Shown piece by piece: positions 1-18,926 of a stretch of 64,000 nt of DNA. The number at the start of each line of letters is the position of its first letter. The stretch's first letter is position 1. This stretch comes from Candidatus Magasanikiibacteriota bacterium (lineage in GTDB: Bacteria > Patescibacteriota > Patescibacteriia > Magasanikbacterales > UBA922). The notes below the pieces were generated by a model. That model had not been told where the DNA came from. It saw only the letters and a program-made list of their open reading frames with translations, and searched no databases. The position numbers were made by a program, and so were the translations under genes. Where the stretch lies: the NCBI GenBank assembly GCA_018651085.1, contig JABIEQ010000014.1:15178-79177 (forward strand), given 5' to 3'.

Positions 1-305
1 CCAGCCTGGAACGCCACTTCGAGCATACTCGAGATGGCCTCGAGGGTGTGACGCTGAAGATCCTTAGCTGAGAGATCCGACAACTTGAACCTCCCGATGA
101 TGCGCATGAGGATCAAGAAGTCAGGGCCCTTCTTGATAAACTCAGTGAGAAACTCAGCTACGGGCCCCTCTGTGACCTCAAAAATACCAATGAGGCCTGT
201 CTCATTGATTTTTCCCACCGTAGGAGGTTCATCTGCATTTTCCCAGACCGGGAGGACCCGCCAGCCATGATCTCTACTCCGTATGATTGCAAATTCCCTT
301 TTCAC
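1..305 (-). CDS. hypothetical protein, 5' part only (runs off window start); G+C-rich relative to neighbours
   Basis: Open frame on the minus strand from GTG at 303-305 to the window edge, with an AAGGAG Shine-Dalgarno 5 nt upstream (rc of 311-316). Not in the ORF track because no stop lies in the window. Translation VKREFAIIRSRDHGWRVLPVWENADEPPTVGKINETGLIGIFEVTEGPV... has no family I recognise. Confidence 0.4.
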   Translation of the reverse strand, partial: MKREFAIIRSRDHGWRVLPVWENADEPPTVGKINETGLIGIFEVTEGPVAEFLTEFIKKGPDFLILMRIIGRFKLSDLSAKDLQRHTLEAISSMLEVAFQA

Positions 306-392
306 AACTTCTCCTTGGCTCGTTGAGCCTACCGCCTTGGTCAGGAAATGGGCGGATATAAAAATATACTATAATAAGGGAAAAAGATCAAT

Positions 393-821
393 ATGTCTAT
401 AAAAACAGTAACTATTCTCGGATGTCTTACTCTTGCAATGCTCGGGTTTGGGTGTACCCCTGTAGAAGACACAAAGATAGTAGAAAAGGAGGTTCTTTTA
501 GAGTATTCTCGAGTTGGAGGCATTGCAGGGTTTTTAGACAACATAATCATTTTTTCAAACGGTGATGTTGAAGGAGAAACCCGTAAGGGGAAACATACGA
601 CATCTTTAGGGTTAGAAGATATTCAAGCATTAACAGTGTTTGTAAAAGGGAAACACTACACAAAGGAACCTCCACAAGTAGAGCAAGATGTTTGTTGTGA
701 TATCTTATATGTAGACTATTATGTGTATGATAAAAACCAAAAGGTGCGCATCAAAGAAGAAGAAAACATACGCTTGTTAATAGCAAAAATAGTTGAAGAA
801 CCTTTAAAAGATATTAATTAA
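393..821 (+). CDS. small putative lipoprotein (signal peptide ending MLGFGC), paralog of the next gene
   Basis: N-terminus MSIKTVTILGCLTLAMLGFGC resembles a lipobox. A TATAAT -10 at about 370-375 and a purine-rich RBS lie upstream. There is a CC motif near the C-terminus. Confidence 0.5.
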   Translation: MSIKTVTILGCLTLAMLGFGCTPVEDTKIVEKEVLLEYSRVGGIAGFLDNIIIFSNGDVEGETRKGKHTTSLGLEDIQALTVFVKGKHYTKEPPQVEQDVCCDILYVDYYVYDKNQKVRIKEEENIRLLIAKIVEEPLKDIN

Positions 822-834
822 AAAAGAAAATGCT

Positions 835-1290
835 ATGTCTATAAAAACATCCATAGTAGTAGGAATATGTGCAATTGTTATGCTCGGATTTGGGTGTGCG
901 CCAGTAGAACAAAAAGAAGTCATTATGATGCTTGAGGTTTCTGCTGCAGTCGGATTTCCTGATCTCGTCAAGATTTATTCAGATGGAGAAACAAGGTGGC
1001 ACGGAAGAGCCTCTGGGTATCACACAACCGAATTAACACAAGAAGATATAAAAGAAATTAAAAGACTCATAAAAGAAAAAGACTATACAAAAGAAGACCC
1101 AACGATAAAAGGCGGAGAAAGCTGTTGTGAAGAAAATTTCCATGTACGTTATCAGGTCCTTGAAGGAGAGGAAAAAATACAAATAGAAAAAAATGAACTA
1201 CTCGAAAGAATAATGGAAGACATATATAGACAACGGTCAGAGGACATATTTAATCCAGATACAGGTACGTGGGAAAAAGCAAGCAAGTAA
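835..1290 (+). CDS. small putative lipoprotein, tandem paralog of 393..821
   Basis: It has the same MSIKT...MLGFGC N-terminus and a YTKE-P...CC motif shared with the upstream gene. Confidence 0.5.
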   Translation: MSIKTSIVVGICAIVMLGFGCAPVEQKEVIMMLEVSAAVGFPDLVKIYSDGETRWHGRASGYHTTELTQEDIKEIKRLIKEKDYTKEDPTIKGGESCCEENFHVRYQVLEGEEKIQIEKNELLERIMEDIYRQRSEDIFNPDTGTWEKASK

Positions 1291-1297
1291 TACTGCT

Positions 1298-2049
1298 ATG
1301 GATACTATTTCAATAATACTTGTCATCCTTCTTGGGCTTTCTTGTGGAAGTTTTATCAATGCTTGGATATATAGGACAGAAAAGAAAGAATCTCTGTTAG
1401 GACGCTCACACTGTCCTACATGTAATATAGAACTAAGTTGGAGGGATAATATTCCTGTGATAAGTTTTATTGTTTTAAAAAAACAATGTAGACATTGCAA
1501 GAAGAGTATCTCTTGGCAATACCCCATAATAGAATTATGGACCATGTTTGCTTTTATCTATACATTTGTGACACATGATCTACAGTTTACGCCAGAACTC
1601 GTAAGAGATGGGTATATCGTTATTCTCCTCACCTTTATATTTGTATATGATCTTAAGTATCAGTACATTTTAGATAAAATCACACTTCCAGCCATTAGTA
1701 TTCTTATTGTATTAAACCTCATATTTTCATGGATGAGCCCTACAAACATGCTTATATCAATTGCTGTCGGTGGTGGGTTTTTTCTGTTACAATATGTGGT
1801 ATCAAAGGGGCGGTGGATTGGTGGAGGAGATATTCGTCTAGGTGTACTTATGGGCGTTATATTGGGGTGGCCATACGTCATCGTTGGTATATTTTTAGCC
1901 TATATCATCGGCCTTATTACTGTTACGCCACTACTTCTCGCTCGTAAGAAACATATGGGGGAACAAATTCCCTTTGGAACATATCTAAGTGTAGCAACAC
2001 TTATTTGTATGTTTCATGGGGAATATTTACTTACCACATATCTTTCATT

Positions 2050-2062
<13 letters not shown>
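1298..2062 (+). CDS. pilD: type IV prepilin leader peptidase (A24 family)
   Basis: N-terminal zinc-binding CPTC...CRHC tetracysteine, polytopic membrane body and a GGGDIRLG motif typical of PilD/A24 peptidases. Confidence 0.8.
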
Positions 2063-4558
<2,496 letters not shown>

Positions 4559-4569
4559 AATAAACAAAA

Positions 4570-4590
4570 CCACCAGCCCAAAGCTGGTGG
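4570..4590 (+). terminator. stem-loop after ligA (ccaccagc-ccaaa-gctggtgg)
   Basis: An 8-bp perfect GC-rich stem lies immediately after the ligA stop, followed by T-rich sequence. Confidence 0.5.
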
Positions 4591-4601
4591 TCTATTATAT
4601 A

Positions 4602-4751
4602 GGGGGCTCAGTGTGCTGAATTGGACCCCCATTTCCAATCAAGCCTTGGAGGACAGGGCAGAGCGATCGCGAGGATCACGTGCAATTCGGAGAGATCCAC
4701 CATAAGGAGGAGATACCGAGGGGCATTATTTAAGACCTGAGCACACTGAAC
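4602..4751 (+). ncRNA. G+C-rich structured element of unknown class between ligA and gatC
   Basis: No ORF. The 5' segment gctcagtgtgctgaa (4606-4620) is complementary to cctgagcacactgaac (4736-4751), which closes a ~130-nt domain containing GGGGG/CCCCC, a gcgatcgc palindrome and paired ggatc/gatcc segments. It is G+C-rich against an A+T-rich background. No SRP, 6S or tmRNA signature motifs were found. Confidence 0.4.
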
Positions 4752-4838
4752 GTATATGTACAATAGCAATGTAGAATAAGGTCTGTCAAGGAAATATCAC
4801 ACCTTGTAAGTAAGAAGAATGTCTAGTATACTTTTCAT

Positions 4839-5144
4839 ATGAAACTAACAGAAAAAGACATCGAAAAGATCGCTTTACTAGCAAGATTAGAACTTAGTGA
4901 AGAAGAAAAGACCATGTACGCCGGGCAACTCTCGGTGGTTTTAGATTATGTAGAAATGCTAAATGAAGTGGATACAACCATGGTAGAAGAAACCTGTCAG
5001 GTGACAGGATTAGAAGATGTGTTTAGAGAAGACGAAGTAGAAGAAGAAAGTAATGAAACAAAAGAAAAAATTATTGAACAATTTCCACAAAAAGTAGGCC
5101 GACTTTTAAAAGTACAAGCAGTATTTGATAAAAGAAAGAAATAG
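4839..5144 (+). CDS. gatC: Asp-tRNA(Asn)/Glu-tRNA(Gln) amidotransferase subunit C
   Basis: About 100 aa, beginning MKLTEKDIEKIALLARLELSEEEK, with the characteristic GatC length and sequence, immediately upstream of gatA. Confidence 0.85.
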   Translation: MKLTEKDIEKIALLARLELSEEEKTMYAGQLSVVLDYVEMLNEVDTTMVEETCQVTGLEDVFREDEVEEESNETKEKIIEQFPQKVGRLLKVQAVFDKRKK

Positions 5145-5150
5145 ATAAAG

Positions 5151-6584
5151 ATGGAACTTAATGCACTTACAATCAAACAAGCCACTACAGGACTCCAAAA
5201 TAAGGAGTTTTCTTCAGTTGAATTGACATCTGCATGCATTAATCGCATTAAAAAGAGAAATAGTGACATTAATGCATTTATTAGTGTGACTGAAGATGAA
5301 GCGATGGACGCTGCAAAAAAAGCGGATGAAGCAATAAAAAATGGAAGTAGTAAAACCCTTACAGGTATCCCATTTGGAGTAAAGGACGCCATTTGTGTTA
5401 AAGACATCCGGTCAACTGGAGGCGCAAAAATTCTTGATACCTATACACCTCCACATACAGCAACCGTTATAGAAAAGATTTTATCTGAAGGTGCTGTTCT
5501 CGTTGGAAAGCAAAACTGCGATGCTTTTGGGCATGGAGCAAGTAATGAGAACTCCATGTATGGGCCAGTTAAAAATCCTCATGATACAACAAAGGTAGCC
5601 GGAGGTTCTTCAGGTGGCTCAGCTGCCGCACTTGCTGACAATCAATGCCTTTTTTCTATTGCAGAAGACACTGGTGGATCAATTCGTCAACCAGCGAGTC
5701 TTTGTGGTGTTGCGGGTCTTCGCCCAAGTTATGGGAGAAATTCGAGGTACGGGATCATGCCAATGGCAAGTTCTTTAGATACTGTGGGACCAATGGCAAA
5801 AACAATAGAGGATATTGCTATATTGATGGAAGTTATGGCCGGAAACGATAAAAAAGACGCCACAACGGTAAATCAAGAAGTGCCAATGTACACAAAAGAG
5901 ATAATAAAAGACATTTCAGGCATGAAAATTGGGGTTCCAAAAGAATACATGGAACTTGAAGGTATGGATGAAGAAGTGAAACATATCATTGAAAAACAAA
6001 TTGAAGCATTAAAAAAGATGGGATGTAAGATAGAGCCCATTTCTTTACCACATACAAAATATGCTGTTCCTGTGTATTACATTGTAGTTCCGAGTGAAGA
6101 CAGTTCAAACATGGGAAGACTTGATGCTATTAGATATGGGGTTCAAGAAAAAGGGGATTCTCTTTATGACGTATATGCAAACAGTAGACGTAATGGTTTT
6201 CCAGAAGAAGTAAAAAGACGGATCATGGTTGGAACATATGCCCTTTCAGCTGGATACTATGATGCGTATTATAAAAAAGCACAAAAAGTACGAACCCTTA
6301 TTAGACAAGATTTTGAGAATGCCTTTTCAAAGGTAGACCTTTTAGTAACACCAACGTCTCCTTTTCCTGCATTTGGTCTTGGTGAAAAAAAAGATGATAT
6401 TATTTCAATGTATTTAGCTGATGTGTTTGTAAGTCCAGGGGCAGTTGCTGGTATCCCAGGATTATCTGTTCCCGTTGGGAACACTAAAGCAAGACTTCCT
6501 GTGGGTCTTCAAGTAATGGGACCACGGTTAGCAGAAGGAAGAGTATTACAACTTGGGCACCATATTCAACAAGCACAATCATAA
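5151..6584 (+). CDS. gatA: Asp-tRNA(Asn)/Glu-tRNA(Gln) amidotransferase subunit A
   Basis: Amidase signature GGSSGGSAAALA and a Ser-cisSer-Lys region, 477 aa, adjacent to gatC. Confidence 0.9.
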   Translation: MELNALTIKQATTGLQNKEFSSVELTSACINRIKKRNSDINAFISVTEDEAMDAAKKADEAIKNGSSKTLTGIPFGVKDAICVKDIRSTGGAKILDTYTPPHTATVIEKILSEGAVLVGKQNCDAFGHGASNENSMYGPVKNPHDTTKVAGGSSGGSAAALADNQCLFSIAEDTGGSIRQPASLCGVAGLRPSYGRNSRYGIMPMASSLDTVGPMAKTIEDIAILMEVMAGNDKKDATTVNQEVPMYTKEIIKDISGMKIGVPKEYMELEGMDEEVKHIIEKQIEALKKMGCKIEPISLPHTKYAVPVYYIVVPSEDSSNMGRLDAIRYGVQEKGDSLYDVYANSRRNGFPEEVKRRIMVGTYALSAGYYDAYYKKAQKVRTLIRQDFENAFSKVDLLVTPTSPFPAFGLGEKKDDIISMYLADVFVSPGAVAGIPGLSVPVGNTKARLPVGLQVMGPRLAEGRVLQLGHHIQQAQS

Positions 6585-6591
6585 ACATACT

Positions 6592-7941
6592 ATGAAAAAA
6601 GACGACATTAAAAAAATGGAAGAACAAGCAATTCGGACATTTGGGTATACACTTAATGAAAATAAAGATTATAGAGAGCCATGGAGAATTTTTCGTATCA
6701 TGGCGGAGTTTGTAGAAGGGTATGAGTTTTTAACAAATTTAGAAAAAGAAGTAACCATTTTAGGATCAGCAAGGCTTCCAGAAGGAAGTAAATATTATGA
6801 ACTTGCAAGAGAACTCGGAGGAATACTCGCAAAAAACGGATTTACCACACTCACTGGTGGTGGGCCTGGAATTATGGAAGCAGGGAATAGGGGAGCCTTT
6901 GAAGCTGGTGGAAATTCAGTTGGATTAAATATTCAACTTCCTTTTGAACAAGTAATAAATCCTTACGTTAAAAAATCAACGTCATTTAATTACTTTTTTA
7001 CAAGAAAAGTAATGTTAACGTCCCCTGCACATGCGTTTGTCTATTTTCCAGGAGGATTTGGAACACTTGATGAGTTATTTGAAGTAGTAGATAACATAGA
7101 GCTTCGATTTATGGAGAGTGCGCCTATTATTCTTGTAGGAAAAGAATTTTGGGAACCAGTTATTGAGTTTCTTCTAGGCAGTTGTGGAAGTGTTGGGTCA
7201 GTACCAAAAGAAGAAGTGGAAAAATGGCACATCGTTGATACTGCTGAAGAAGCGTTTGAATTTATTAAGGATGTAAAAGAAGTGAAAACATGTTCACTTT
7301 CACCAACAAGTTTTCATTGTGAAAAAAATATTGATTGGAAAATTTTTAGAATCATGTCAGAACTAGTTGAAGGGTTTGAGTTTGTTACAGGAAAGACAAA
7401 TGCTGTGACAGTTCTTGGAACAAAAAGTATTACTCCTGATAATGAGTATTATGAAGCAGCGTATCGTGTAGGGAAAACACTCGCAGAACACAAATATGAT
7501 GTGTTAACTGGGGGGAAAACTGGTGTGGCAGAAGGGACAAATAAAGGAGCCTTTGAAGCAGGGGGAAATTCTGTTGGCATCGGTATGCGCGTTGCGGGGC
7601 ATGATATGGTAAATCCATATCTAAGTAGCTCAATTCTTTTCAATTTCCCATTTACAAGAAAGCTGATTATTACTGCGCCAACAAAAGCCTTCGTATTTTT
7701 TCCAGGAGGATTTGGAACACTCCATCAGTTATTTGAAATACTTACACTGATTCAAACAAAGAAAATGGAGAAAATTCCAATCATTCTTTTTAATCATAAG
7801 TTTTGGGAACCAATGCATAAGTTTATTAAAGAAACATTGGTGCATAAAATGAAGACTGTGGGGGATAAAGACGACGAATTATATCAAATTGTAGATAATG
7901 AAGAAAGTATTATAAGGGTAATAGAAGAATACTACGCATAA
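6592..7941 (+). CDS. tandem-duplicated LOG-family (TIGR00730, Rossmann-fold lysine-decarboxylase-like) protein
   Basis: Two consecutive copies of the LOG motifs: GGGPGIMEAGNRGAFEAGG...PGGFGTLDELFE and GGKTGVAEGTNKGAFEAGG...PGGFGTLHQLFE. Start set at the ATG just after the gatA stop. Confidence 0.7.
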   Translation: MKKDDIKKMEEQAIRTFGYTLNENKDYREPWRIFRIMAEFVEGYEFLTNLEKEVTILGSARLPEGSKYYELARELGGILAKNGFTTLTGGGPGIMEAGNRGAFEAGGNSVGLNIQLPFEQVINPYVKKSTSFNYFFTRKVMLTSPAHAFVYFPGGFGTLDELFEVVDNIELRFMESAPIILVGKEFWEPVIEFLLGSCGSVGSVPKEEVEKWHIVDTAEEAFEFIKDVKEVKTCSLSPTSFHCEKNIDWKIFRIMSELVEGFEFVTGKTNAVTVLGTKSITPDNEYYEAAYRVGKTLAEHKYDVLTGGKTGVAEGTNKGAFEAGGNSVGIGMRVAGHDMVNPYLSSSILFNFPFTRKLIITAPTKAFVFFPGGFGTLHQLFEILTLIQTKKMEKIPIILFNHKFWEPMHKFIKETLVHKMKTVGDKDDELYQIVDNEESIIRVIEEYYA

Positions 7942-7943
7942 AT

Positions 7944-8708
7944 ATGATTCCTTGGATTCACTACAACGTTATTAACATTGGCCCTCTACCTATTCAGGTA
8001 TGGGGGTTGTTTGTTGCTATAGGCCTTATTGTATCAGTAGCAATCATTACAAAACGTGCCCCAAAAATGGGACTACAAAAAGAACAAATCCTTGATATGG
8101 TTATTTGGGCTTTGTTTGGTGGATTTATTATGTCGAGAATATTTCACATTGCTTTATATGAACCAGGCTTTTATATTGCCAACCCTCTAGAAATGGTAAA
8201 AGTATGGCAAGGAGGATTATCTTCCTTTGGTGGTGTCGCAGGTGCAGCCTTGGGTATCCTTCTTTACGCAAAAAGAAAAGGAATAGTCATAAAAACATTA
8301 CTCCCAACGATAGATCTATTGAGTTTTTCAGCCCTTTTTGGATGGATCTTTGGGCGGATTGGATGCTTTTTAATTCATGATCATCCTGGAACGCTTTCTC
8401 ATAGCTTTCTTGCTGTGAAAAATCCAAATGGATCAAGGTTAGACATGGCATTTTTAGAAATATTGGCACTGTTGCCGTTAGTTGTATTTTTTATACTAAC
8501 AAGAAAGAAAAAATACCCAGAAGGATTCTATACAGCTATACTATTTATATACTACGGCATAACACGCATAGTATTAGATTTTTTTAGAGCAACTGATGTC
8601 TCTCATGCTGATGTACGCTATCTTGGATTGACGCCTGGGCAATACATTGCTATTGTCATGGTACTTTTTGGTATAGCAATATACATAAGAAAAGTACATA
8701 AAAAGTAG
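7944..8708 (+). CDS. lgt: prolipoprotein diacylglyceryl transferase
   Basis: Polytopic membrane protein with the Lgt-like N-terminus (IGPLPIQVWGLFVAIG) and a GRIGCFLIHDHPG motif, 254 aa. Confidence 0.7.
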   Translation: MIPWIHYNVINIGPLPIQVWGLFVAIGLIVSVAIITKRAPKMGLQKEQILDMVIWALFGGFIMSRIFHIALYEPGFYIANPLEMVKVWQGGLSSFGGVAGAALGILLYAKRKGIVIKTLLPTIDLLSFSALFGWIFGRIGCFLIHDHPGTLSHSFLAVKNPNGSRLDMAFLEILALLPLVVFFILTRKKKYPEGFYTAILFIYYGITRIVLDFFRATDVSHADVRYLGLTPGQYIAIVMVLFGIAIYIRKVHKK

Positions 8709-8798
8709 GGAAGGATGGCTGAGTGGTCGAAAGCGCTTGCTTGGAAAGCAAGTGTACGAGAAATCGTACCGTGGGTTCGAATCCCGCTCCTTCCGCCA
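8709..8798 (+). tRNA. tRNA-Ser (anticodon GGA), CCA encoded
   Basis: Cloverleaf readable: acceptor GGAAGGA/TCCTTCC, anticodon loop TTGGAAA, long variable arm, T-loop GGTTCGAATCC, 3' GCCA. Confidence 0.9.
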
Positions 8799-8807
8799 AT
8801 ATAGAAT

Positions 8808-9395
8808 ATGAATATCACTTTATACCAAATTATATTTGACTGGGGAGGAGTATTAGCTCCAGATGATTCTTTGCTTGCCGCAGAACACCTTTCAAAAAAG
8901 TACAAATGTGATTATGAAGAATTACGAAAAGTGCTCTGGGATGAAGAGGGCTTTTCTGAAGGAAAAAATGAAGAAGGATATTTTAAAAAAATACTAGAGA
9001 AATTTCCTATACCAAAAGAAGAGATTATAGAATGGAAAAACAAAGCGCTTCCAAATGACACCTTCACTTTTTGTCATAAGTTGAAAAAGAAAGGATATAC
9101 AGTACACCTTCTATCAGACCAGATGCAATGGAGAGCTGACTTTATAAGAAATAACTTTGATTTGCAATGTTTTGATCAAATAATGTTTTCTTCTGAAATT
9201 GGACATATAAAAAAAGAAAAGGAAGCATTTTTGTGTATGATAAATGCAGGAAGAATAGATCTTAAAAAAGCAGTATTTGTTGATGATTCTAAATGTAAAA
9301 TAGCCGTAGCAAAAGAAGTTGGGTTAGATGCTATTTTGTATATAAATCTACCTGATTTGAAAAAACAATTACATAAAAGAGGGATTACTATATAA
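8808..9395 (+). CDS. HAD-superfamily hydrolase-like protein
   Basis: Motif I-like FDWGGVL at the N-terminus and a VFVDDS motif near the C-terminus. The second Asp of DxD is replaced, so the call is tentative. Confidence 0.45.
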   Translation: MNITLYQIIFDWGGVLAPDDSLLAAEHLSKKYKCDYEELRKVLWDEEGFSEGKNEEGYFKKILEKFPIPKEEIIEWKNKALPNDTFTFCHKLKKKGYTVHLLSDQMQWRADFIRNNFDLQCFDQIMFSSEIGHIKKEKEAFLCMINAGRIDLKKAVFVDDSKCKIAVAKEVGLDAILYINLPDLKKQLHKRGITI

Positions 9396-9499
9396 GGTGA
9401 TTCTTTTTTAAATATAAGATATTTTGTATACTAAGGGAGTCTTTAATTATGTACAAGAAAATAAATAAAATATAGAGTTTAATAAATTATTTTATCCAT

Positions 9500-10216
9500 A
9501 TGAAAAATAAAGTAAGCATTATCCTTGGAATGTGTGCTATCACATTATTTGTAGGGGTTGGTTGTAATTGGCATTTTGAGGTAGGAAAAGATCTAAACCA
9601 AGAAGAAAATGATGAAGAAATTGTAGAGAGCCTGAAAGAAGAACCTCAAGCCATAGAAGAAAACATAGTAATACCAGAAAATGAAGTAATAAAAGAAATA
9701 ATACAAGAAGCTGTTAAAGAAGAAAATGTAGAAATCAAAAATGCAGTATGTAAAACATTAGATTGTTTTATGGAATTGGCAAACGATTGTAAAAAAGGGG
9801 AAGTTACTCATTATTATAGCGTGCCATTTTTACTAGGTGATGGGGTAAATATGACAGGTATAAATAGATACGTACTTCATGGGAGAGATAAAAACAAACA
9901 ATGTACCTTTACACAGCAATCACAAGGTTCTGAAGCTAAAATTTCAATAGAAGGTAGAGAAAAGGCTTTAGCCGAAGGATTCACAAACGAAGAAGTTGAT
10001 GCTCAAATAGAAGCCATAAATGGAGCATTAAATGATCCGGCTCTTTTAGAGAGTATTATGACATGTAGAGGAGCAGAAAAAGACATCATTACTTACTTAC
10101 AAAATACACAACAAGGGATTGGGAAAACCTCTTGTTCATTTGATTTTGGAAAAGACGAAACAGTATGTATTGTAGAACCTAATTTATCGTGTATTACAAA
10201 GATAACAACAAAATAG
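9500..10216 (+). CDS. Cys-rich putative lipoprotein, hypothetical
   Basis: Signal peptide with lipobox-like FVGVGC, an acidic low-complexity linker and several Cys residues. Confidence 0.5.
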   Translation: MKNKVSIILGMCAITLFVGVGCNWHFEVGKDLNQEENDEEIVESLKEEPQAIEENIVIPENEVIKEIIQEAVKEENVEIKNAVCKTLDCFMELANDCKKGEVTHYYSVPFLLGDGVNMTGINRYVLHGRDKNKQCTFTQQSQGSEAKISIEGREKALAEGFTNEEVDAQIEAINGALNDPALLESIMTCRGAEKDIITYLQNTQQGIGKTSCSFDFGKDETVCIVEPNLSCITKITTK

Positions 10217-10241
10217 AAGGTGGACTCTAACAGTAAGAAAC

Positions 10242-10547
10242 ATGAAGTATAATAAGCTTGTACGAGATAATATTCCAGAAATTATTAAAGCAAATGGGGA
10301 GGCTTCAATGATTCACATCGCAGGAGAAACAGAATATAAAGAAAAACTCATTGAAAAACTACAAGAAGAAGTAGATGAATTTATAAAAGATAACTCAAAA
10401 GAAGAGCTTGCTGACATTCTTGAAGTTATTTATGCCTTAGGAGATCTGTATGAGATTAAAAAAGAAGAACTTGAAAAAATACGACAGATTAAAGCAGAAA
10501 AAAGAGGAACATTCACAAAAAGAATCATTTTAGAAGAAACAACATAA
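10242..10547 (+). CDS. MazG-like nucleoside triphosphate pyrophosphohydrolase (small all-alpha NTP-PPase)
   Basis: N-terminus KLVRDNIPEII and EExxE/D acidic helices typical of ~100-aa MazG/HisE-like pyrophosphohydrolases. Confidence 0.55.
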   Translation: MKYNKLVRDNIPEIIKANGEASMIHIAGETEYKEKLIEKLQEEVDEFIKDNSKEELADILEVIYALGDLYEIKKEELEKIRQIKAEKRGTFTKRIILEETT

Positions 10548-10566
10548 GTATTAAAAAGAGTAAAGT

Positions 10567-11376
10567 ATGAAAAAAACGATACTTATCACCGGGGCATCAA
10601 CTGGTATTGGAAAAGAAGTGGCCTTATATTTTGCTAAAAAAGGTTGGCATGTTGCGGCAACCATGAGAAGTCCAGAAAAACATTCTTTTAAACATACAAC
10701 AATTAAAAAATACAAACTAGATGTTACAGACCAACATTCTATAAAAGATACAATACAAAAAGTAATTCAGGAATTAGGTTCTATTGATGTTATTGTAAAC
10801 AATGCTGGTTACGGAGCACTTGGTATTTTCGAAAAAGCAACGACAGAACAAATTCAAAAACAATTTGAAGTAAACGTTTTTGGGGTCATGAATGTGATTC
10901 GTCATACATTACCACATTTCAAAAAGAAAAAAGCAGGTCTTATTATAAACATTTCTTCAATGGCTGGATTATTAGGTATACCAATGTACAGTGTATATCA
11001 TGGATCTAAATGGGCACTTGAAGGATTTACTGAATCATTACAATTTGAACTACAACCATTTAATATACAGGTTAAAAACGTAGAACCCGGAGCAATTAAA
11101 ACAGACTTTTATACACGTTCTCAAGAAGTATTCACCAATGAGAGTATTAAAGGGTATGATACCTATGAAGCAATAATTAAAGGTGTGATAAAAAAAACAG
11201 GAGAAACTGCCCCAGGACCAAAAACGGTAGCAGAAGTAGTATATAAAGCCGCAACTGATGGAAAAAATCGTTTGCGGTACCCCGTAGGAAAAAAAATCTG
11301 GTCGCTATTACTTGCAAAAAAATTATTGCCAAATCGAGTATTCTTTTTTATAGTGAAACAAATGATGAGGAGATGA
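10567..11376 (+). CDS. short-chain dehydrogenase/reductase (SDR)
   Basis: TGASTGIG Rossmann motif, NNAG, and the catalytic YxxxK (YHGSK). Confidence 0.85.
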   Translation: MKKTILITGASTGIGKEVALYFAKKGWHVAATMRSPEKHSFKHTTIKKYKLDVTDQHSIKDTIQKVIQELGSIDVIVNNAGYGALGIFEKATTEQIQKQFEVNVFGVMNVIRHTLPHFKKKKAGLIINISSMAGLLGIPMYSVYHGSKWALEGFTESLQFELQPFNIQVKNVEPGAIKTDFYTRSQEVFTNESIKGYDTYEAIIKGVIKKTGETAPGPKTVAEVVYKAATDGKNRLRYPVGKKIWSLLLAKKLLPNRVFFFIVKQMMRR

Positions 11377-11540
11377 AAGACGTAAAAAACGTCGTGAAAT
11401 GGATACAAAAAAATCATCACAAGATACTTTAAAGAAAAAGGATGCTCTGTTGTTTTTATAACTTTATGGTATACTTATCCCATTAGTATAAAATTAATCA
11501 TTCTCTAAAGAACCCTCTTTAGCTTTTTAAATACACCTAT

Positions 11541-14384
11541 ATGGCATATATGAGAAGACATCTCCTCGCATTTATTATCATGGCAGTGGTTATTGGGGCC
11601 GCTAGTATTTCTGCATTAGCAGTAAATGCACAAATAGACATATTAAGTAATATTAACAATGCACAAAGTTGTACAGAAATAGAAGGACAAAGCCCTGTCA
11701 TTGATCCATTTACAGGAGAAGCCGAATGTCGATGTGAGTCCGGCCATGAAGTCAATGAAAAAGGGACAAAATGTGTCAAAGTTGAGATTACAACATGTCC
11801 AAGTGGAGAAGAAAAGAACATATTTGGAGAATGTATTCCAATTGTAGAACAAGATCCTGAACCAACTAGTTGTGAAAATAAAACATATAATCAAGGGGTG
11901 TACGACAATGTATATGATCTAGATGGGGACTGTCATATGTCAGAAGGGCCAGAGAATCTTCCAACAGGATATCCAATTGATTGTGATGATTCACTTCCTG
12001 ATGGAGCAGATAGATTTGAAAACTGTGAAGAAGTTGTAGAAACTTCTGAATGTCCAGAAGGACAAGAAATAAACCCAAACGGTGCTTGTGTACCTGTAAT
12101 TCAGGAAACACAAGGATGCCCAGAAGGGGAAGAGTTAAATCCTAATGGGGCATGTGTTCCTGTCGTAACAGAAGAAGATTGTGGAACAGAGCTATATAAC
12201 GTCGGGATCTATAACAATGTATATGATCTAGACGGGGATTGTCATATGTCAGAAGGCCCAGAGAATCTTCCAACAGGATATCCAATTGATTGTGATGATT
12301 CACTTCCTGATGGAGCAGATAGATTTGAAAACTGTGAAGAAGAAACAACTGACGAATGTCCAGATGGAACACATCTTGGCGTAACTGGGCCAAACGATAA
12401 AACACCAGCGTGTGTGCCGGACGAAGAAGGATGTGAAGAAGGTTTTGTTGTTGTTCCAGGGTATTCACCAAATGGATTACCAATAACAACATGTATTGAA
12501 GAAGAAGTAGGGTGTCCAGATGGAACACATCTTGGTGTAACTGGACCAAACGATAAAACACCAGCATGTGTACCAAACGTAGAACTAAGTGGGGAAGAAT
12601 GTGCTGAAGGAGAAGTATTACTACTTGCGTATGACGAAAATGGTGTTCCGGTAACGCAGTGTGTCACACAATGTGAAATAGGAACGACGCTACAACAAAC
12701 ACAAGTGGCTGGTGACACCGTATACACCTGTGTAGAGGTAGATACTGCATGTACGCCAGGACAAGTAACACAATTTTCTCAAACATCTATTACCCATGCA
12801 CTTCTTGAAGAATGTACAAATAGAGAAGACGTTTGTACAGGTTCAGGTGAAGTAGCAGAGTATAGTGTGACTGGATTATTCTTAGGATGTAATACCGGAT
12901 GCCCAGATGGACAAATTGTAATTAGTTATACAACAGACGATGGATTGAGTTATGAAGAGTGTGCAAATCCATCAGAAGATGATGTTTGCGATCCAAATGA
13001 ACATCCTGGGTTTCAAAGCACATCAATTATTGTGAACCAAACAACAGGAGAAGGACGTTGTTTAGAAGAAGATGAAGATATCTGCGAAGAAGGACAAGTT
13101 ATTGGGTACACATTTTCAGGATTACCAACATGTGTAGATCAATGTGCTGACGGAGAAATTATCTATGAGTGGACTGGAAAAGACGGTGAAGTGTATCAAG
13201 AATGTTATAGTCCAGAAGAAAATAACGACGAAGGCTATGACGATGTTTGTGAAGAAGATCAAGTACTGACTATTCAAAGTACAAATGTAGAAAATCATCA
13301 AATCATTGCAGAATGCTTAGATGAAGATCTTATTTGTGAAGAAGGACAAGAAGTCATTTATGATGGATCTGGTCTTGCAAGTTGTGCTGATAGGTGTGAA
13401 AACGGAGAAGTACCAATATTAGGATACGATCCAAATGGTCTACCAACAAGCATTTGTGTAGAAGAAAATGAAGACATTTGTGAAGATGGAGAAATATTAG
13501 GATATGATGCCAACGGTCTTCCTTTAGGTGATGGTGAATGTGTAGAGGAAGAAGAAGTATGTGCAGACGGAGAAATATTAGTACACACTACAACTGGCTA
13601 TGGAGTCTGCCAAGAAGAAGAAGTTGGTTGTCCAGCGGGATACGTGGCTTTCTATGATGGTTCAGGAGCACTCTTTTGTGAAGTACCAGAAGCAGGATGT
13701 GTAGACGGACAAGTATCAGCTCCGGTACAAACAATTGTTATCCAACAAGCAAATACTAGTTACGAAGAAACAATTTATAGTTGTTATGAACCAGAAGATG
13801 CCTGTACAGATAGTGAAAGTGGAGCATTATTTAGCCAAGCAGCAACAACTGGACTTGGTGGATGTCAAGAAAACTGTCCAGCAGGGCAATTGCTCGTAGA
13901 AGCACAAAGTGCGACAGGTGAACCGTACCTAACTTGCGAAAGTCCAATTGAACCGGCATTTTTCCAACAATACAGTGGAGAAGGGAATACTGATGACGAT
14001 GAAGAAAATCAAGATGGACAGGTGTTTGTGGCAATATCATCTGGATCAGGAGCAGATGCTGACGAAACAGTATACGTAAAGAAAAACAAAGAAGAGGCTT
14101 GCCCTGCAGGAACAAGCTTGTTACTAGATCAATCAAATAGAGCAAGTTGTGTAAGAGAATGTCCAGTGGATCACATTAGAACAGAAAGACGATTACGTGG
14201 AACAAAGTTCCAAGAGTGTGTACCACTCACAAGCCTTACAGAAAGAGAACAACGCCAAGCACTAAGAAGTACAAATGCAAATGATAAACGAGTATATGTA
14301 CTTGTCGGAATTGCAATAGTACTTGTAGCATTGCTAGTCGGATTATTCACTCAAGCAAAAAAGAAAGAAGAAATCGGACAATAA
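11541..14384 (+). CDS. large secreted/surface Cys-rich acidic repeat protein with a C-terminal transmembrane anchor
   Basis: Signal peptide, about 947 aa, dozens of CP(D/E)G...C repeats, internal near-identical nucleotide duplications, and a C-terminal hydrophobic helix VYVLVGIAIVLVALLVGLF followed by a KKKEE tail. Confidence 0.7.
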   Translation: MAYMRRHLLAFIIMAVVIGAASISALAVNAQIDILSNINNAQSCTEIEGQSPVIDPFTGEAECRCESGHEVNEKGTKCVKVEITTCPSGEEKNIFGECIPIVEQDPEPTSCENKTYNQGVYDNVYDLDGDCHMSEGPENLPTGYPIDCDDSLPDGADRFENCEEVVETSECPEGQEINPNGACVPVIQETQGCPEGEELNPNGACVPVVTEEDCGTELYNVGIYNNVYDLDGDCHMSEGPENLPTGYPIDCDDSLPDGADRFENCEEETTDECPDGTHLGVTGPNDKTPACVPDEEGCEEGFVVVPGYSPNGLPITTCIEEEVGCPDGTHLGVTGPNDKTPACVPNVELSGEECAEGEVLLLAYDENGVPVTQCVTQCEIGTTLQQTQVAGDTVYTCVEVDTACTPGQVTQFSQTSITHALLEECTNREDVCTGSGEVAEYSVTGLFLGCNTGCPDGQIVISYTTDDGLSYEECANPSEDDVCDPNEHPGFQSTSIIVNQTTGEGRCLEEDEDICEEGQVIGYTFSGLPTCVDQCADGEIIYEWTGKDGEVYQECYSPEENNDEGYDDVCEEDQVLTIQSTNVENHQIIAECLDEDLICEEGQEVIYDGSGLASCADRCENGEVPILGYDPNGLPTSICVEENEDICEDGEILGYDANGLPLGDGECVEEEEVCADGEILVHTTTGYGVCQEEEVGCPAGYVAFYDGSGALFCEVPEAGCVDGQVSAPVQTIVIQQANTSYEETIYSCYEPEDACTDSESGALFSQAATTGLGGCQENCPAGQLLVEAQSATGEPYLTCESPIEPAFFQQYSGEGNTDDDEENQDGQVFVAISSGSGADADETVYVKKNKEEACPAGTSLLLDQSNRASCVRECPVDHIRTERRLRGTKFQECVPLTSLTEREQRQALRSTNANDKRVYVLVGIAIVLVALLVGLFTQAKKKEEIGQ

Positions 14385-14392
14385 GACAATAA

Positions 14393-14432
14393 AAAAAGAA
14401 CCCCATTAACGGGGTTCTTTTTTTGACCATGG
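14393..14432. terminator. bidirectional rho-independent terminator
   Basis: The sequence aaaaaaagaaccccattaacggggttcttttttt is a perfect hairpin flanked by an A-run and a T-run. Confidence 0.7.
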
Positions 14433-14489
14433 TATTTCCTCATGGGTATGGTATACTAATTACTATCATTTTTTTAAGAAAAGATTCAT

Positions 14490-15938
14490 ATGAAAAAAGA
14501 TATTATAGTAATACTATCTGGGATATGTATTTTGATTATAATAGGAGTCTCTATTTTTCTGGTACACGAAAAAAGAGAAAACACACAAGGTGATTCGTTA
14601 GTAGAACAGATAGATAATGCCACTTCAATACATGAAGAAAATAACGTGAAAAGAAAATTTAGAGAGTTCAACATAGATCTTTCGATGCATTCTATTGATC
14701 TTAATGCTATTCTCGACGGAGGACCGGGGAAAGATGGCATTCCAGCACTTACAAATCCAAAAACTGTATCGCTTGATGATGTTGATACAAAGGAAGATAT
14801 TCTTGGTATTTTGGTAGAAATAAATGATGAGAAAAAATATTATCCATACAATGTGCTAGTATGGCATGAAATTATTAATGATACTTTAGGTGGAAAAGAA
14901 ATAGCCGTAACATTCTGTCCATTATGTGGATCAGCAATTGTATTTGATAGGGACGTAGAAGGAGAAATACTTGATTTTGGTGTAAGTGGTAAATTGTTTG
15001 AGTCAAATCTACTTATGTATGATACACAAACAGATTCTCTATGGTCTCAAGCAAAGGGAGAAGCTGTAGTAGGAGAAAAGACAGACACAAAGCTTACACG
15101 TATTCCATTTCAACTATTATCGTTTAAACAAATTCGTGAAAAAGAGGAAAACCTTGATGTTGTAAGTACAGACACAGGGTTTAAAAGAGACTATAGTGTG
15201 TACCCATATGGTGATTACGAAGAAAATGACAGTATGGTATTTCCTGTAAGCGTCAATGATAAAAGATATTTTGCAAAAGAAATAATGTATGTATTTTCTC
15301 TAAAAGATACATCAATAAGTTTCCCCGTTAATACGATAGAAAACGGCCTCTTTTCTTTTACAATAGAGGATAAAGAGATATACATTAAAAAAGATGGTGG
15401 AGAAATTTTTATTACAGATAATGGATCTGTCATACCCGGATATTACGAAATGTGGTTTTCTTGGGCAACGCACCATCAATTAGATGGCATAGTTTTGCCT
15501 AATCATGAATTTACACAAGGACATAATGAAGAAGAGAAAGAAACTGAGAAAAATAAAGAAACCACCTATAGTGGGGAAGTACTTGCAGGAAAAACGGCAT
15601 TAGTTATTGATTTTAATCAAGAAGATTACAACAAAGCAAAAGAAGAAGAAAAAAACATCATGCTCTATTTTTATGCAACCTGGTGCCCTCTTTGTAAGGA
15701 AGAGTTGAAAGATCTATATGCGGCATTTAACGATATAGAAAAAGAAAATATAATTGCATTTAGAGTGAATTATAAAGATGGAGAAACACAAAAGGAAGAA
15801 AAACAGTTAGCAAAAGAATTCGGTGTGGCATATCAACACACCAAGATTTTCATAAAAGATGGAGAAAGAATACACAAAACACCCGAAACCTGGAATAAAG
15901 TACAATATGAAGAAGAAGTAATACGTATTTTTAATTAA
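14490..15938 (+). CDS. membrane-anchored DUF3179-like domain fused to a C-terminal thioredoxin-like domain
   Basis: N-terminal TM helix. A central CPLCG-containing domain resembling DUF3179. A C-terminal thioredoxin fold with WCPLC (ATWCPLCKEE). Confidence 0.55.
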   Translation: MKKDIIVILSGICILIIIGVSIFLVHEKRENTQGDSLVEQIDNATSIHEENNVKRKFREFNIDLSMHSIDLNAILDGGPGKDGIPALTNPKTVSLDDVDTKEDILGILVEINDEKKYYPYNVLVWHEIINDTLGGKEIAVTFCPLCGSAIVFDRDVEGEILDFGVSGKLFESNLLMYDTQTDSLWSQAKGEAVVGEKTDTKLTRIPFQLLSFKQIREKEENLDVVSTDTGFKRDYSVYPYGDYEENDSMVFPVSVNDKRYFAKEIMYVFSLKDTSISFPVNTIENGLFSFTIEDKEIYIKKDGGEIFITDNGSVIPGYYEMWFSWATHHQLDGIVLPNHEFTQGHNEEEKETEKNKETTYSGEVLAGKTALVIDFNQEDYNKAKEEEKNIMLYFYATWCPLCKEELKDLYAAFNDIEKENIIAFRVNYKDGETQKEEKQLAKEFGVAYQHTKIFIKDGERIHKTPETWNKVQYEEEVIRIFN

Positions 15939-15943
15939 CATAT

Positions 15944-16654
15944 ATGGGAGATATATCAATCATCTTTGCTTTTTTAGGGGGAGTCGTATCCTTTCTTTCT
16001 CCATGTGTATTACCAATAATCCCTGGTTTTTTAGCATATCTCGCTGGGTCATCATTAGAAAATCCAAGTAGAGAAGAGCGAAGAGAAATGTTTATAAATA
16101 GTCTTTTCTTCGTATTAGGGTTTTCTCTTATATTTGCCATCCTTGGAGTCCTTTTAAATACTGTGCTAGAAGCAATTGCGTATGATGTACAAAACTGGTT
16201 AGCACGCATTGGAGGAATCATTATTATATTTTTTGGGATCTATCTTACCGGAATTATTAAAGTACCTTTTTTAGAAAAAGAGCATAAGGTACTTATTAAA
16301 AGAAAATTTAAATCAAAATATCTAACCTCATTTATATTTGGCCTTGCATTTGCCGTGGGTTGGACTCCTTGTGTAGGAGCAGCACTCGGAGCAATTTTAG
16401 GACTTGCCGCATCTCAACCAGGAGCAGCATTTATATTATTATTTGCATATTCTTTAGGGCTTGGGTTACCATTTATTATTACCGCAATATTTGCGGCGGG
16501 AGCAACAAAACTCATAAAAAAGGTAGGCCCTTGGCTTAAATACGTTATGATTATCTTTGGAATTATCCTTATCATCTTAGGAGTACTGGTATTTACCCAA
16601 TTACTGAGTCGTGTTGCGGATTTTAGTATACTTACCATGCTTTTATCTCGATAA
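15944..16654 (+). CDS. ccdA: cytochrome c biogenesis / thiol-disulfide electron transfer protein CcdA (DsbD family)
   Basis: Conserved Cys-containing TM motifs LSPCVLPIIPG and GWTPCVGAALGAIL, six predicted TM helices. Confidence 0.8.
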   Translation: MGDISIIFAFLGGVVSFLSPCVLPIIPGFLAYLAGSSLENPSREERREMFINSLFFVLGFSLIFAILGVLLNTVLEAIAYDVQNWLARIGGIIIIFFGIYLTGIIKVPFLEKEHKVLIKRKFKSKYLTSFIFGLAFAVGWTPCVGAALGAILGLAASQPGAAFILLFAYSLGLGLPFIITAIFAAGATKLIKKVGPWLKYVMIIFGIILIILGVLVFTQLLSRVADFSILTMLLSR

Positions 16655-16710
16655 ATGTGCTTGAGAAGAGAAAAAACTAATGGTACAATAAGGCTATTAA
16701 CATAGATCAT

Positions 16711-17427
16711 ATGGAGTTTGGACACTCACTCGTCATCATTGCTGTACTTACATTAAGTTTATTACGATACAAAACAGGGAGCCTTTGTCTTGCCTGTACA
16801 AAGCATGGAAATAAAATCATGTCTTTTATCATTGGGGCGGCAATCATGCTTATCTTTTTGCATCTTCTCAGTGTCGTTTATTTTGAAATTGGTTCCCTTC
16901 ATCCCTTTCTTATTTTATTACTCCCAATAGGATTTTGTACGTTTTTGTTTATCGAGCAACACGTGCAACATCACAAGAGAAAAGATATACAAACAGAAGA
17001 AGCACGAACAGTGCATCTAGTGCTTTCAGCAATAACGGGTATATTAGTAGGATTTGCACTTATTCAAAATACACAAAGTAGTTTAGTAGATGGAATACTC
17101 CTTATTTTCGTCTTTGTGTTATATGATCTTATTGATACGATAACGTTACATTCGTTGCATCATAGAAAAGAAGTTGTTTCAATGAAGCATAAGCTAAGAC
17201 GTGTATTGTTTAGTCTTGCTCCAGTATACGGATACGTCATTGGTCTGTTAATTAATATCCCACGAGTCATTCACTTTGGTATTGTGGCATTTCTTACCGG
17301 AATTATCTTACATGCTATCTTTAGAGAGATTATTCCAGAAGAAAAACGTATCCTCCCATTATACTTCAGTATAGGTGTACTATTTTTTGTAGGGTTATTT
17401 TTCCTTGATGCTTTTCTTGTTTCATAA
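16711..17427 (+). CDS. polytopic membrane protein, possibly a ZIP-family metal transporter
   Basis: Multiple TM helices, a His-rich loop HVQHHKRKD, and a HAIFREIIPEE segment reminiscent of the ZIP HxxxE...PE motif. The assignment is weak. Confidence 0.35.
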   Translation: MEFGHSLVIIAVLTLSLLRYKTGSLCLACTKHGNKIMSFIIGAAIMLIFLHLLSVVYFEIGSLHPFLILLLPIGFCTFLFIEQHVQHHKRKDIQTEEARTVHLVLSAITGILVGFALIQNTQSSLVDGILLIFVFVLYDLIDTITLHSLHHRKEVVSMKHKLRRVLFSLAPVYGYVIGLLINIPRVIHFGIVAFLTGIILHAIFREIIPEEKRILPLYFSIGVLFFVGLFFLDAFLVS

Positions 17428-17429
17428 AT

Positions 17430-17795
17430 ATGAAACTAAATTTCAATAAAGAATATACAAAAAGACCAGAAGCTCTTATCCGTGTATGTGGGTATGGGAA
17501 ACTTATAAGTCCAAGGACAGGGCAGGTCAGTTACGCAAGACATCTACGTCGTGGAGCGCGATATCCGCGTTTTCATTGTTATATAGATGAAAAGGATACA
17601 ACCTTTACCATAAACCTTCACCTTGATCAAAAACAAGCCTCCTACGGTACACATACAGCCCATGGCGGAGATTATGATGGGCAAGCAGTAGAAGAAGAAG
17701 CAAAACGAATACAAGAAGTGATAGATGAACACCTGATAGAAAAAAAAGAAGTGCCCGTAGACACCCCAACATATGATCTTTCAATGTTTGGTTAA
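17430..17795 (+). CDS. hypothetical protein
   Basis: A 121-aa ORF in frame with good coding appearance. No recognisable family. Confidence 0.4.
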   Translation: MKLNFNKEYTKRPEALIRVCGYGKLISPRTGQVSYARHLRRGARYPRFHCYIDEKDTTFTINLHLDQKQASYGTHTAHGGDYDGQAVEEEAKRIQEVIDEHLIEKKEVPVDTPTYDLSMFG

Positions 17796-18631
17796 CGACG
17801 AAAAGGAATAGACAAGATAAACACAATAATAAAATGAATTAAGGAAATAATAAGTGCATAGGTAAATAGTGCAATAAAGATTCCTAAGAAATGGTTGGTG
17901 CTTACTATAAAGTCAGTAATATTAACACCAATAAGGATAGCAGCGATATTAATAAGCAAAAGTACAACAAGAAGCCATAAAAAACCATGTATCATCACCT
18001 TTTGATCTTGGCGACTCGGAGCAAGGTGAGAAGCAACACAAAAAGAAAGATATAAAAATAACCAAAATTGCCACGTAGAAAAAGAAGAGAGTGTTAATAG
18101 ACCTGAAAGGGTCTGTTTTATGGTAGAAAAAATAAGAGAAAGAGAAGAATCAGTATAAAGAGGTAAGTCTAAAAAAGTTGTACCAGGTAAAAGAAAACGA
18201 AACAATAGATAAAGCACAAGAGATCCAAAGATCATAGGAGCAGCTCCTATGAAAAAGTTTCCAATACGAGCCCATAGATTCCATTTATGATACGTATGGT
18301 CAACATGACCAAGCCCGCCAGTCCTTTTATTAGGCTTAAATAATGATATTGAAGTCACTCTATGCATAAAGAGTTTTGCCATTAAGGCGTGACTCAATTC
18401 ATGTATTGGAGTACCTAACCATGCTGTCCACAAAATACCCTTCCAACCAACAGTACGCTGATATAGGTTTTGTGTTTGTTGTTGAAACATAGATAGAAGA
18501 AAACCAAAAACAAAAAAGATGCCAAAGACACCAATGATTTGTATGGTCACTGCACTAACCAAAGGAAAAATAAATTCTGAAAGAAAAGTATTATCCATAA
18601 ATAACAACACCAATGGCAACAAGAAGATCAA
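17792..18631 (-). CDS. membrane protein with an HExxH motif (putative intramembrane zinc metallopeptidase-like)
   Basis: Polytopic membrane protein containing IHELSHAL followed by GHVDH. The start may be the internal ATG (MDNTF). Confidence 0.4.
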   Translation of the reverse strand: MIFLLPLVLLFMDNTFLSEFIFPLVSAVTIQIIGVFGIFFVFGFLLSMFQQQTQNLYQRTVGWKGILWTAWLGTPIHELSHALMAKLFMHRVTSISLFKPNKRTGGLGHVDHTYHKWNLWARIGNFFIGAAPMIFGSLVLYLLFRFLLPGTTFLDLPLYTDSSLSLIFSTIKQTLSGLLTLSSFSTWQFWLFLYLSFCVASHLAPSRQDQKVMIHGFLWLLVVLLLINIAAILIGVNITDFIVSTNHFLGIFIALFTYALIISLIHFIIVFILSIPFRR

Positions 18632-18926
18632 TTAAGAACCATAAAAAGGCACTAGCGATAATAGGTTTTTCTTTATGTAAAAAACCGTACATCATCCAAG
18701 TCATGTTCATAAAGGCATTAAAGGCAAAGGTAGTAAAAGAAACTCCTGCTGCCGTTTGATCATGATAGATTTTATATACCTGTGTGCTTGCGATAAGTGG
18801 TCCAGCAATACCAATCACGTACACAAACTTGTCCATGAATCGTTTGAAAGGATGGTTGTGAGGGTAGGGTTCCATTTTTTTCTTTTTTCGCTTGCGTTTA
18901 TGGATGTGATGAATTGGGGTAGACAT
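18591..18926 (-). CDS. small membrane protein, hypothetical
   Basis: Basic N-terminus and 3 predicted TM helices. It overlaps the start of the downstream minus-strand gene. Confidence 0.35.
   Translation of the reverse strand: MSTPIHHIHKRKRKKKKMEPYPHNHPFKRFMDKFVYVIGIAGPLIASTQVYKIYHDQTAAGVSFTTFAFNAFMNMTWMMYGFLHKEKPIIASAFLWFLIDLLVAIGVVIYG

Follow-up and report, generated by a model that had tools for sequence, protein, structure and literature searches.

A predicted minus-strand small RNA gene in the ligA–gatC spacer of a Magasanikbacteria genome

Small RNA genes that stand alone and act in trans, of which Spot 42 and RsaE/RoxS are examples, lie in intergenic regions, carry their own sigma-70-type promoter and Rho-independent terminator, yield structured transcripts of ~100 to 200 nt with exposed single strands, and are narrowly distributed. 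6S RNA (RF00013 and relatives), likewise an independent gene of comparable size, folds into a rod made up of a long, G+C-rich closing stem formed by its two ends, a large central bubble, and a terminal stem; it binds the RNA polymerase holoenzyme and serves as a template for product RNAs. In some Firmicutes, gatCAB is placed under the control of a T-box leader. Candidate structured RNAs have also been found as G+C-rich intergenic regions of A+T-rich genomes (the GC-IGR approach; PMC8632094), and such candidates become motifs only with homologs and covariation. Bacteria of the candidate phyla radiation (CPR) combine tiny genomes with hardly any described regulatory RNAs, and a look through the literature on CPR small RNAs yielded nothing relevant. 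Here, we describe an element with the GC-IGR signature (an intergenic island that is rich in G+C and free of credible open reading frames [ORFs] within an A+T-rich genome) in a 64,000-nt stretch of contig JABIEQ010000014.1 from a Candidatus Magasanikiibacteriota bacterium (assembly GCA_018651085.1), hereafter the window. The element lies in the spacer between ligA (2534-4558, plus strand) and gatC (4839-5144, plus strand, with its ATG at 4839); the GatC, GatA, and LigA sequences all match proteins that are assigned by name to Magasanikbacteria.

Our preferred interpretation, to which we assign a probability of roughly one-half, is that the spacer holds an independently transcribed, lineage-specific gene for a structured small RNA of ~195 nt, encoded on the minus strand in convergent orientation to ligA. 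The spacer between the ligA stop codon and the gatC start contains a block (4602-4753) of ~55% G+C, against 0.368 for the 64-kb window overall; successive 100-nt windows across the block reach 0.56 and 0.53, and the maximum is 0.59 per 80 nt. On the minus strand, the block is preceded by a sigma-70-type promoter (-35 box TTGACA at 4789-4784, an 18-nt spacer ending in TGn, and -10 box TATTGT at 4765-4760) that matches the consensus at 10 of 12 positions and is of the extended -10 type. It is followed by an intrinsic terminator (4554-4593, minus strand), in which a 12-bp hairpin (4593-4567) runs into the U-tract UUUUGUUUAUUUU. This terminator ranks first in the list of terminator-like structures for positions 1-20000 of the window; read on the plus strand, the same hairpin forms only 9 pairs and has the poor tail CUAUUAUAUA. 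The surrounding genes are almost all encoded on the plus strand, such that a terminator in this orientation needs a minus-strand transcript; together, a minus-strand promoter and a minus-strand terminator 170 nt apart are best explained by one.

Because matches to the promoter consensus are common in A+T-rich DNA, their predictive value was checked across the window. Matches at ≥10 of 12 positions are enriched ~6-fold in non-coding DNA (which makes up 14% of the window), and those other minus-strand matches in non-coding DNA that were assigned to genes each stand ahead of a minus-strand gene, namely, tRNA-Lys, ribosomal protein L27, a protein with an RNA recognition motif (RRM), and two G+C-rich orphan ORFs. 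The predicted start of the transcript, at ~4753, falls 2 nt ahead of the helix that closes the element (P1), from whose far end the terminator is separated by 12 nt. On the plus strand, we found neither a promoter ahead of the element nor a terminator between the element and gatC.

The element is moderately more structured than expected by chance. Against dinucleotide-shuffled sequences, its fold scores z = -3.70 on the plus strand (none of 200 shuffles was as good) and z = -3.05 on the minus strand (1 of 200), with values of -3.5 and -3.3, respectively, when the test was repeated. Of 52 control windows of equal length, taken from G+C-rich parts of this genome, only five attain z ≤ -3: three around the intergenic gap at 31888-32164 and two spanning a terminator-like hairpin near 186-209, while the G+C-rich coding stretch at 175-366 scores +0.3 to +0.6. 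These values and the G+C profile bear out the original prediction, made from the letters of the window and its ORFs, that a G+C-rich structured block of ~150 nt occupies the ligA–gatC spacer. That prediction was also right that the termini pair to close the element, but it put the helix at 15 pairs, of which we recover 10 perfect ones (4608-4617 with 4740-4749), extended on the minus strand to 12 bp by a U·G and a G–C pair; on the plus strand, the U·G pair would be a C·A mismatch. The internal motifs to which it drew attention are all present (GGGGG at 4602-4606, CCCCC at 4626-4630, GCGATCGC at 4664-4671, GGATC at 4673-4677, and GATCC at 4694-4698), but GGGGG and CCCCC, and likewise GGATC and GATCC, are not partners in the minimum-free-energy (MFE) fold, and pairing of the first two competes with the closing helix. 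Similarly, a hairpin (4569-4591) does stand immediately before the G+C-rich block, where the ligA terminator had been placed, but its U-tract is far better on the minus strand. The broader proposal of a small structured RNA is thus upheld by the G+C island, the lack of a credible ORF, the fold, and the promoter and terminator, with the amendment that its strand is most likely the opposite one.

On both strands, MFE and centroid folds agree on a closing helix of 10 to 12 bp around a multibranched core with three or four hairpins. In the minus-strand fold, three hairpins and the 12-bp helix meet at an asymmetric four-way junction. The predicted RNA body (4594-4753, ~160 nt, followed by the terminator) has a G+C content of ~0.53, an MFE of -51.8 kcal/mol, and z values of -3.05 to -3.3. 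Its 5′ strand of P1 (GUUCAGUGUGCU, 4740-4751) pairs with 4606-4617 and has an unpaired probability of ~0; it is followed by J1, a 14-nt A/U-rich junction (CAGGUCUUAAAUAA, 4726-4739) that is predicted to be single-stranded, with unpaired probabilities of mostly 0.7 to 0.99. Beyond J1, the predicted fold places hairpin A (4681-4725), a 45-nt interrupted stem that includes CUCCUCCUUA; hairpin B (4663-4679), whose 6 bp are built on the GCGATCGC palindrome and enclose a CUCGC loop; and hairpin C (4625-4659), with an apical UCCAA/UUGGA stem and a GGCUUGA loop. A partly unpaired nonamer, the UCCAAUUCA box (4617-4625), then extends from the foot of hairpin C across the junction to the initial base of the P1 3′ strand (AGCACACUGAGC, 4606-4617, 12 bp including one U·G), and a 12-nt linker (4594-4605) separates P1 from the terminator. 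All of these features lie on the minus strand.

From these signals, which stand in the right order and spacing around a fold that is better than chance, expression can be predicted as follows. RNA polymerase would start from the promoter at 4789-4760, ~2 nt ahead of the closing helix; the two ends of the transcript would be tied together by the 12-bp helix around the four-way junction and its three hairpins; and transcription would stop past the 12-nt linker at the strong terminator (4593-4567 plus its U-tract), just reaching the ligA stop codon. We infer that such a small RNA would most likely be stable and act in trans through its exposed junctions, pairing with another RNA or binding a protein, with J1 and the UCCAAUUCA box beside P1 as candidate working surfaces. 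In its intergenic place, its size, its promoter and terminator, its structured body with exposed single strands, and its narrow distribution, the element resembles Spot 42 and RsaE/RoxS, from which it differs in that its ends are locked by a 12-bp helix, an arrangement unusual for small RNAs with a seed at the 5′ end, and in being a candidate recognized from its genome alone. A small RNA gene well delimited by promoter, body, and terminator in a widely sampled marine population of Magasanikbacteria would offer a concrete target for metatranscriptomics. Taken alone, it is a single orphan candidate without covariation, of a kind common in any genome. Of some interest for the origin and replacement of small RNA genes in reduced genomes is the comparative picture, in which the structured RNA or tRNA gene that occupies the slot beside a near-leaderless gatC seems to change from lineage to lineage.

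That picture comes from 24 ligA/gatC loci of the Magasanikbacteria type collected through GatC and 10 more through LigA look-ups (loci compared here carry L numbers). The element is identical in the same-species copies (L001, L002, L030, and L043); contigs of the species occur in several public assemblies, and the copies appear to represent one clonal population. Outside the species cluster, the nearest LigA shares 71% identity, and neither blastn nor nhmmer detected similarity between related spacers and the element. A LigA of this identity is that of P0004, in which the ligA–gatC spacer measures 630 nt. Likewise, a covariance model built from the window sequence and its fold (R1) was searched against the window and every related locus, with filtering disabled wherever this could be done, and retrieved only the element itself and trivial hairpins. 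The original prediction had named absence from relatives as the observation that would speak against it, and by that measure the missing sequence match counts against a conserved element; with no relative above 71% LigA identity, it does not settle function. If the element belongs to a family, that family presumably evolves so fast that only the copy in this species can be recognized.

Synteny of ligA and gatC is common among the relatives, whose spacers range from 29 to ~1900 nt and contain G+C-rich elements, small ORFs, tRNAs, or nothing, with contents that mostly cannot be aligned with each other. Where a G+C-rich block or a tRNA is present, its usual companions are a terminator beside ligA and a minus-strand promoter that stands back-to-back with that of gatC. 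Such minus-strand promoters read into G+C-rich elements in L029 (TTGACC-17-TATCAT), L023 (TTGACG-18-TATACT), L012 (TTGACA-16-TATACT), and the pair L059 and L062 (TTGACA-17-TAGTCT), into a block of ~480 nt in L056 (TTGACA-17-TATTAT) and one of ~370 nt in L011 (TTGACA-17-TAGAGT), and into a tRNA in L008 (TTGACA-17-TAAATT); the spacer of L022 also contains a minus-strand tRNA, with no minus-strand promoter detected. In agreement with their signals, the elements of L029, L058, and L056 fold 11 to 20 kcal/mol better on the minus strand. The window element has in common with these same-spacer elements (L029, L058, L023, L012, L056, L059/L062, and L011, plus the tRNAs of L008 and L022) its slot and, usually, its layout, and differs from them in sequence, which cannot be aligned, in size, and in structure: an alignment of four same-spacer elements gave 0 consensus pairs and no common structure, and one element folds better on the plus strand. 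Searches of Rfam with the elements of L029, L023, L056, L058, and L059 returned only noise, and no Rfam family matches any of the G+C-rich elements in this slot.

Several of these neighboring loci have features of their own. The spacer tRNAs (L008 2775-2854 and L022 2797-2878, both minus strand) are unusual in their ARAGORN calls, being 80 to 82 nt long with the anticodon at position 37 (Ile-AAT and Ser-ACT, respectively), and that of L008 is preceded by a 70-nt structured leader. The unannotated G+C-rich blocks of L011 (2480-2862, minus strand, ~370 nt, with a consensus minus-strand promoter and a strong terminator) and L056 (4023-4505, minus strand, ~480 nt, with a consensus minus-strand promoter and a fold 20 kcal/mol better on the minus strand) have no Rfam match and are candidates for larger non-coding RNAs in the same slot.

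A weak homology lead comes from L059 and L062, whose divergent promoter regions are ~90% identical. Both contain, on the minus strand (L059 4051-4094 and L062 3889-3932), a hairpin with a CUUG-type loop, the stem of which differs at two pairs with changes on both sides and pairing kept. The two RNA bodies share only two 9-mers, one of which, UCCAAUUCA, stands just before the terminator. In the 64-kb window, UCCAAUUCA occurs only once on either strand: in the 3′ part of the element on its minus strand, after a hairpin with CUUG in its loop (hairpin C, in which CUUG within GGCUUGA resembles the hairpin loops of L059 and L062). It is the only motif common to the window element and both of these elements, with a chance expectation of ~0.0015 by our own post hoc arithmetic (two 9-mers, ~190 positions). 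At the level of 7-mers, CCAAUUC is the most widely shared word (tied), occurring in 4 of 10 elements and beside the terminator in L023, but the same degree of sharing arose in 31 of 200 shuffles. We regard the sharing of UCCAAUUCA as a lead and not as a finding. It nonetheless raises a bolder scenario, to which we attach little probability: the ligA–gatC spacer of Magasanikbacteria could be a conserved slot from which a minus-strand promoter, placed back-to-back with that of the near-leaderless gatC, drives a single fast-evolving, CPR-specific family of structured RNAs (115 to 480 nt), with only a 3′ module (CUUG-type hairpin, UCCAAUUCA, and terminator) surviving between lineages. The window element would then be a member of this family, perhaps coupled to gatCA expression through the shared divergent promoter region.

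Several observations weigh against a minus-strand small RNA gene, and they are the reason for our restraint in its favor. Expression of the RNA is predicted from sequence alone, and the promoter call is a consensus match of a kind frequent in A+T-rich DNA: a 600-nt scan contained two where 1.4 were expected. Fold energies are nearly equal on the two strands (-51.8 kcal/mol on the minus strand and -53.8 kcal/mol on the plus strand, with four G·U pairs on each), so what decides between the strands is the transcription signals together with a single wobble pair. No homolog could be detected, and hence there is no covariation, the same-species copies being identical; for this reason the element falls short of what GC-IGR candidates need to become motifs. 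The same-spacer elements of relatives are unrelated to it in sequence and vary from 115 to 480 nt, and that of L012 folds better on the plus strand, such that the picture across relatives is not uniform. In L059 and L062, the promoters are kept while the bodies are barely alignable, which could mean weak constraint on the RNA, and the UCCAAUUCA lead is post hoc and, as a 7-mer, not significant against shuffles. Finally, a search for trans targets among 63 translation-start regions in the window identified none: the best duplex, at -35.1, does not improve on the mean of -37.6 for shuffled RNAs.

Of the other explanations, that of a nonfunctional G+C-rich remnant (foreign or decayed DNA in a spacer that acts as an insertion hot spot, with a fold and signals that are fortuitous or relics of a gene since lost, for example a tRNA) is possible though, in our estimation, unlikely. 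It would accommodate the lack of conservation beyond the species, the size range of the spacer in relatives with its unrelated contents, and the existence in the window of minus-strand orphan genes that are likewise rich in G+C and preceded by a promoter of this type, which indicates that G+C-rich inserts occur here. A remnant would not be expected to have a fold that surpasses shuffles and most G+C-rich coding controls, an intact TTGACA, or a closing helix bracketed so precisely by a predicted start and a terminator; the element is also identical in every sample with the species, albeit apparently from one clonal population. A plus-strand element, either a ligA 3′ untranslated region or a structure in a ligA–gatCA read-through transcript that serves as a stabilizer, processing site, or second terminator, has some appeal given the slightly better fold on that strand (z = -3.7 and -3.5), the better plus-strand fold of the L012 element, and the weak U-tail after ligA, which makes read-through plausible. 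It is nevertheless distinctly improbable in view of the missing plus-strand promoter and terminator, a terminator hairpin oriented for the minus strand, a P1 that is two pairs shorter on the plus strand, and a minus-strand promoter that it leaves unexplained. Still less can be said for a miniature inverted-repeat transposable element (MITE) or other repeat, even though a perfect 10-bp inverted repeat surrounds a 122-nt core with A+T-rich flanks: pattern searches and the covariance model locate a single copy in the 64-kb window, and a metagenome scan for both arms yielded a single true copy, identical and at this same locus, whereas the 23 others are without similarity beyond the pattern (the one that was examined, L039, is nearly devoid of ORFs and probably of eukaryotic origin). 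The arms, moreover, lie inside the G+C-rich block and have different flanks (GGGGGC and ACGTAT), with no target-site duplication, and there is no match in viral contigs, phages, or plasmids.

The position of the gatC promoter bears on a further proposal, advanced in the original prediction, that the element is a cis-regulatory leader of gatCA of the riboswitch or T-box type. The element does lie upstream of gatC on the same DNA, a position that it has in common with the T-box and riboswitch leaders of gatCAB. The gatC promoter (TTGTAA-17-TATACT, 4804-4832, plus strand), however, stands on the far side of the element, back-to-back with the minus-strand promoter; 50 nt separate the element from the gatC -35 box, and only 6 nt lie between the end of the -10 box and the ATG. 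Lying upstream of the gatC transcription start and most likely on the opposite strand, the element is therefore not a leader of gatCA, and what little probability remains for this idea is further diminished by the recurrence of the same layout (a promoter ending ≤20 nt from the gatC ATG) in 14 of 25 related loci, by the lack of a T-box or riboswitch match even at an E value of ≤10, of a T-box sequence, and of an expression platform, and by relatives with spacers of 29 to 135 nt that are missing the element altogether (L004, L015, L024, L021, L018, L019, L060, and L061). The suggestion of a 6S-like RNA fares no better. Although the size (~150 to 195 nt), the G+C-rich closing helix, and the promoter all resemble those of 6S RNA, we consider it very unlikely that the element is a 6S or other universal small RNA (signal recognition particle [SRP] RNA, transfer-messenger RNA [tmRNA], or RNase P RNA) too divergent for Rfam: none of these families matches at E ≤ 10, folding predicts an asymmetric four-way junction closed by a 12-bp helix instead of a rod around a large central bubble, and a universal RNA should be recognizable in relatives, in which the covariance model finds none. 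More generally, Rfam 15 searched over the whole window at the gathering score has no match in the region of the element, and a search of 4500-4900 at E ≤ 10 gives only noise (snoRNA- and NsiR1-like matches on the terminator). At 4560-4800, ARAGORN calls no tRNA or tmRNA, and Rfam has no match to SRP RNA, tmRNA, or RNase P RNA, in keeping with the absence of SRP domain IV and tmRNA motifs reported earlier. A small protein or type I toxin gene, in which a structured mRNA would contain a minus-strand ORF of 16, 31, or 53 aa, is likewise scarcely credible. Such ORFs exist, and in type I toxin mRNAs, too, the 5′ end pairs with the 3′ end. The statement that the element has no ORF was nearly right, in that only short, non-ATG frames overlap it (53 and 60 aa on the minus strand; 30 and 39 aa on the plus strand). 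The 53-aa frame begins upstream of the predicted transcription start and has zero shared words with 5.8 billion database proteins (the same search returned no protein from the species, so the frame is unrecorded in any of its assemblies). The hydrophobic run on the minus strand, at ~11 residues, is short of transmembrane length, and no antitoxin RNA signals are evident.

A minus-strand small RNA gene is thus the interpretation that we carry forward, and the gatC side of the spacer merits a separate remark. Promoters 6 to 20 nt before the gatC ATG occur in L004, L005, L007, L008, L012, L017-L019, L021-L023, L029, L058, and L059, and in L029 the near-ATG promoter was also recovered by a separate promoter scan. 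This implies, at the level of predicted promoters, that the gatC mRNA would be leaderless or near-leaderless across many Magasanikbacteria. Within the window, only 6 of 58 genes have a Shine-Dalgarno (SD) match of ≥4 nt upstream of their starts, and translation initiation in this organism seems to be largely SD independent, with which a near-leaderless gatC and the scarcity of SD motifs are both consistent. With SD motifs so rare, reading the UAAGGAGG/CCUCCUUA motif of the element as a mimic of an SD or anti-SD loses its attraction, and an anti-SD mimic (CUCCUCCUUA on the minus strand and UAAGGAGG on the plus strand) was dropped on the grounds that genes in the window almost never carry an SD. 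Also dropped was a CsrA sponge based on GGA motifs of the plus strand, given their weak enrichment and strand evidence that favors the minus strand.

Elsewhere in the window, a plus-strand region of ~750 nt (23949-24730) is without an ORF of >83 aa and has G+C-rich islands at 24041-24687. It has a near-consensus promoter (TTGACA-17-TATATT, with TG ahead of the -10 box) and, after it, a hairpin and T-run near 24700-24730, and it returns no Rfam match at E ≤ 1 except for noise on the terminator; this region is a candidate large non-coding RNA and is perhaps more interesting than the ligA–gatC element. On the minus strand at 31057-32953, two ORFs of 276 and 262 aa, with up to 65% G+C, each lie behind a TTGACA promoter. 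Both have a hydrophobic N-terminal stretch and no Pfam domain, and a database search, made with the first ORF only, matched solely the copy in its own species; the pair may be a foreign or mobile insert. Between these ORFs, the interval at 31993-32226 reaches z values of approximately -6.5 and -5.3 on the two strands and includes a minus-strand terminator (32077-32062). A group I intron (RF00028, 68 bits) at 34870-35158 on the plus strand lies ~90 nt downstream of tRNA-Gln (34709-34780) and is not within a tRNA or rRNA gene. Finally, one of the few minus-strand genes (38439-38690) encodes a small RRM-type RNA-binding protein of 83 aa, identified by its sequence only; it has a TTGACA promoter of its own at 38785-38756 and, at 38427-38400, a terminator that is bidirectional.

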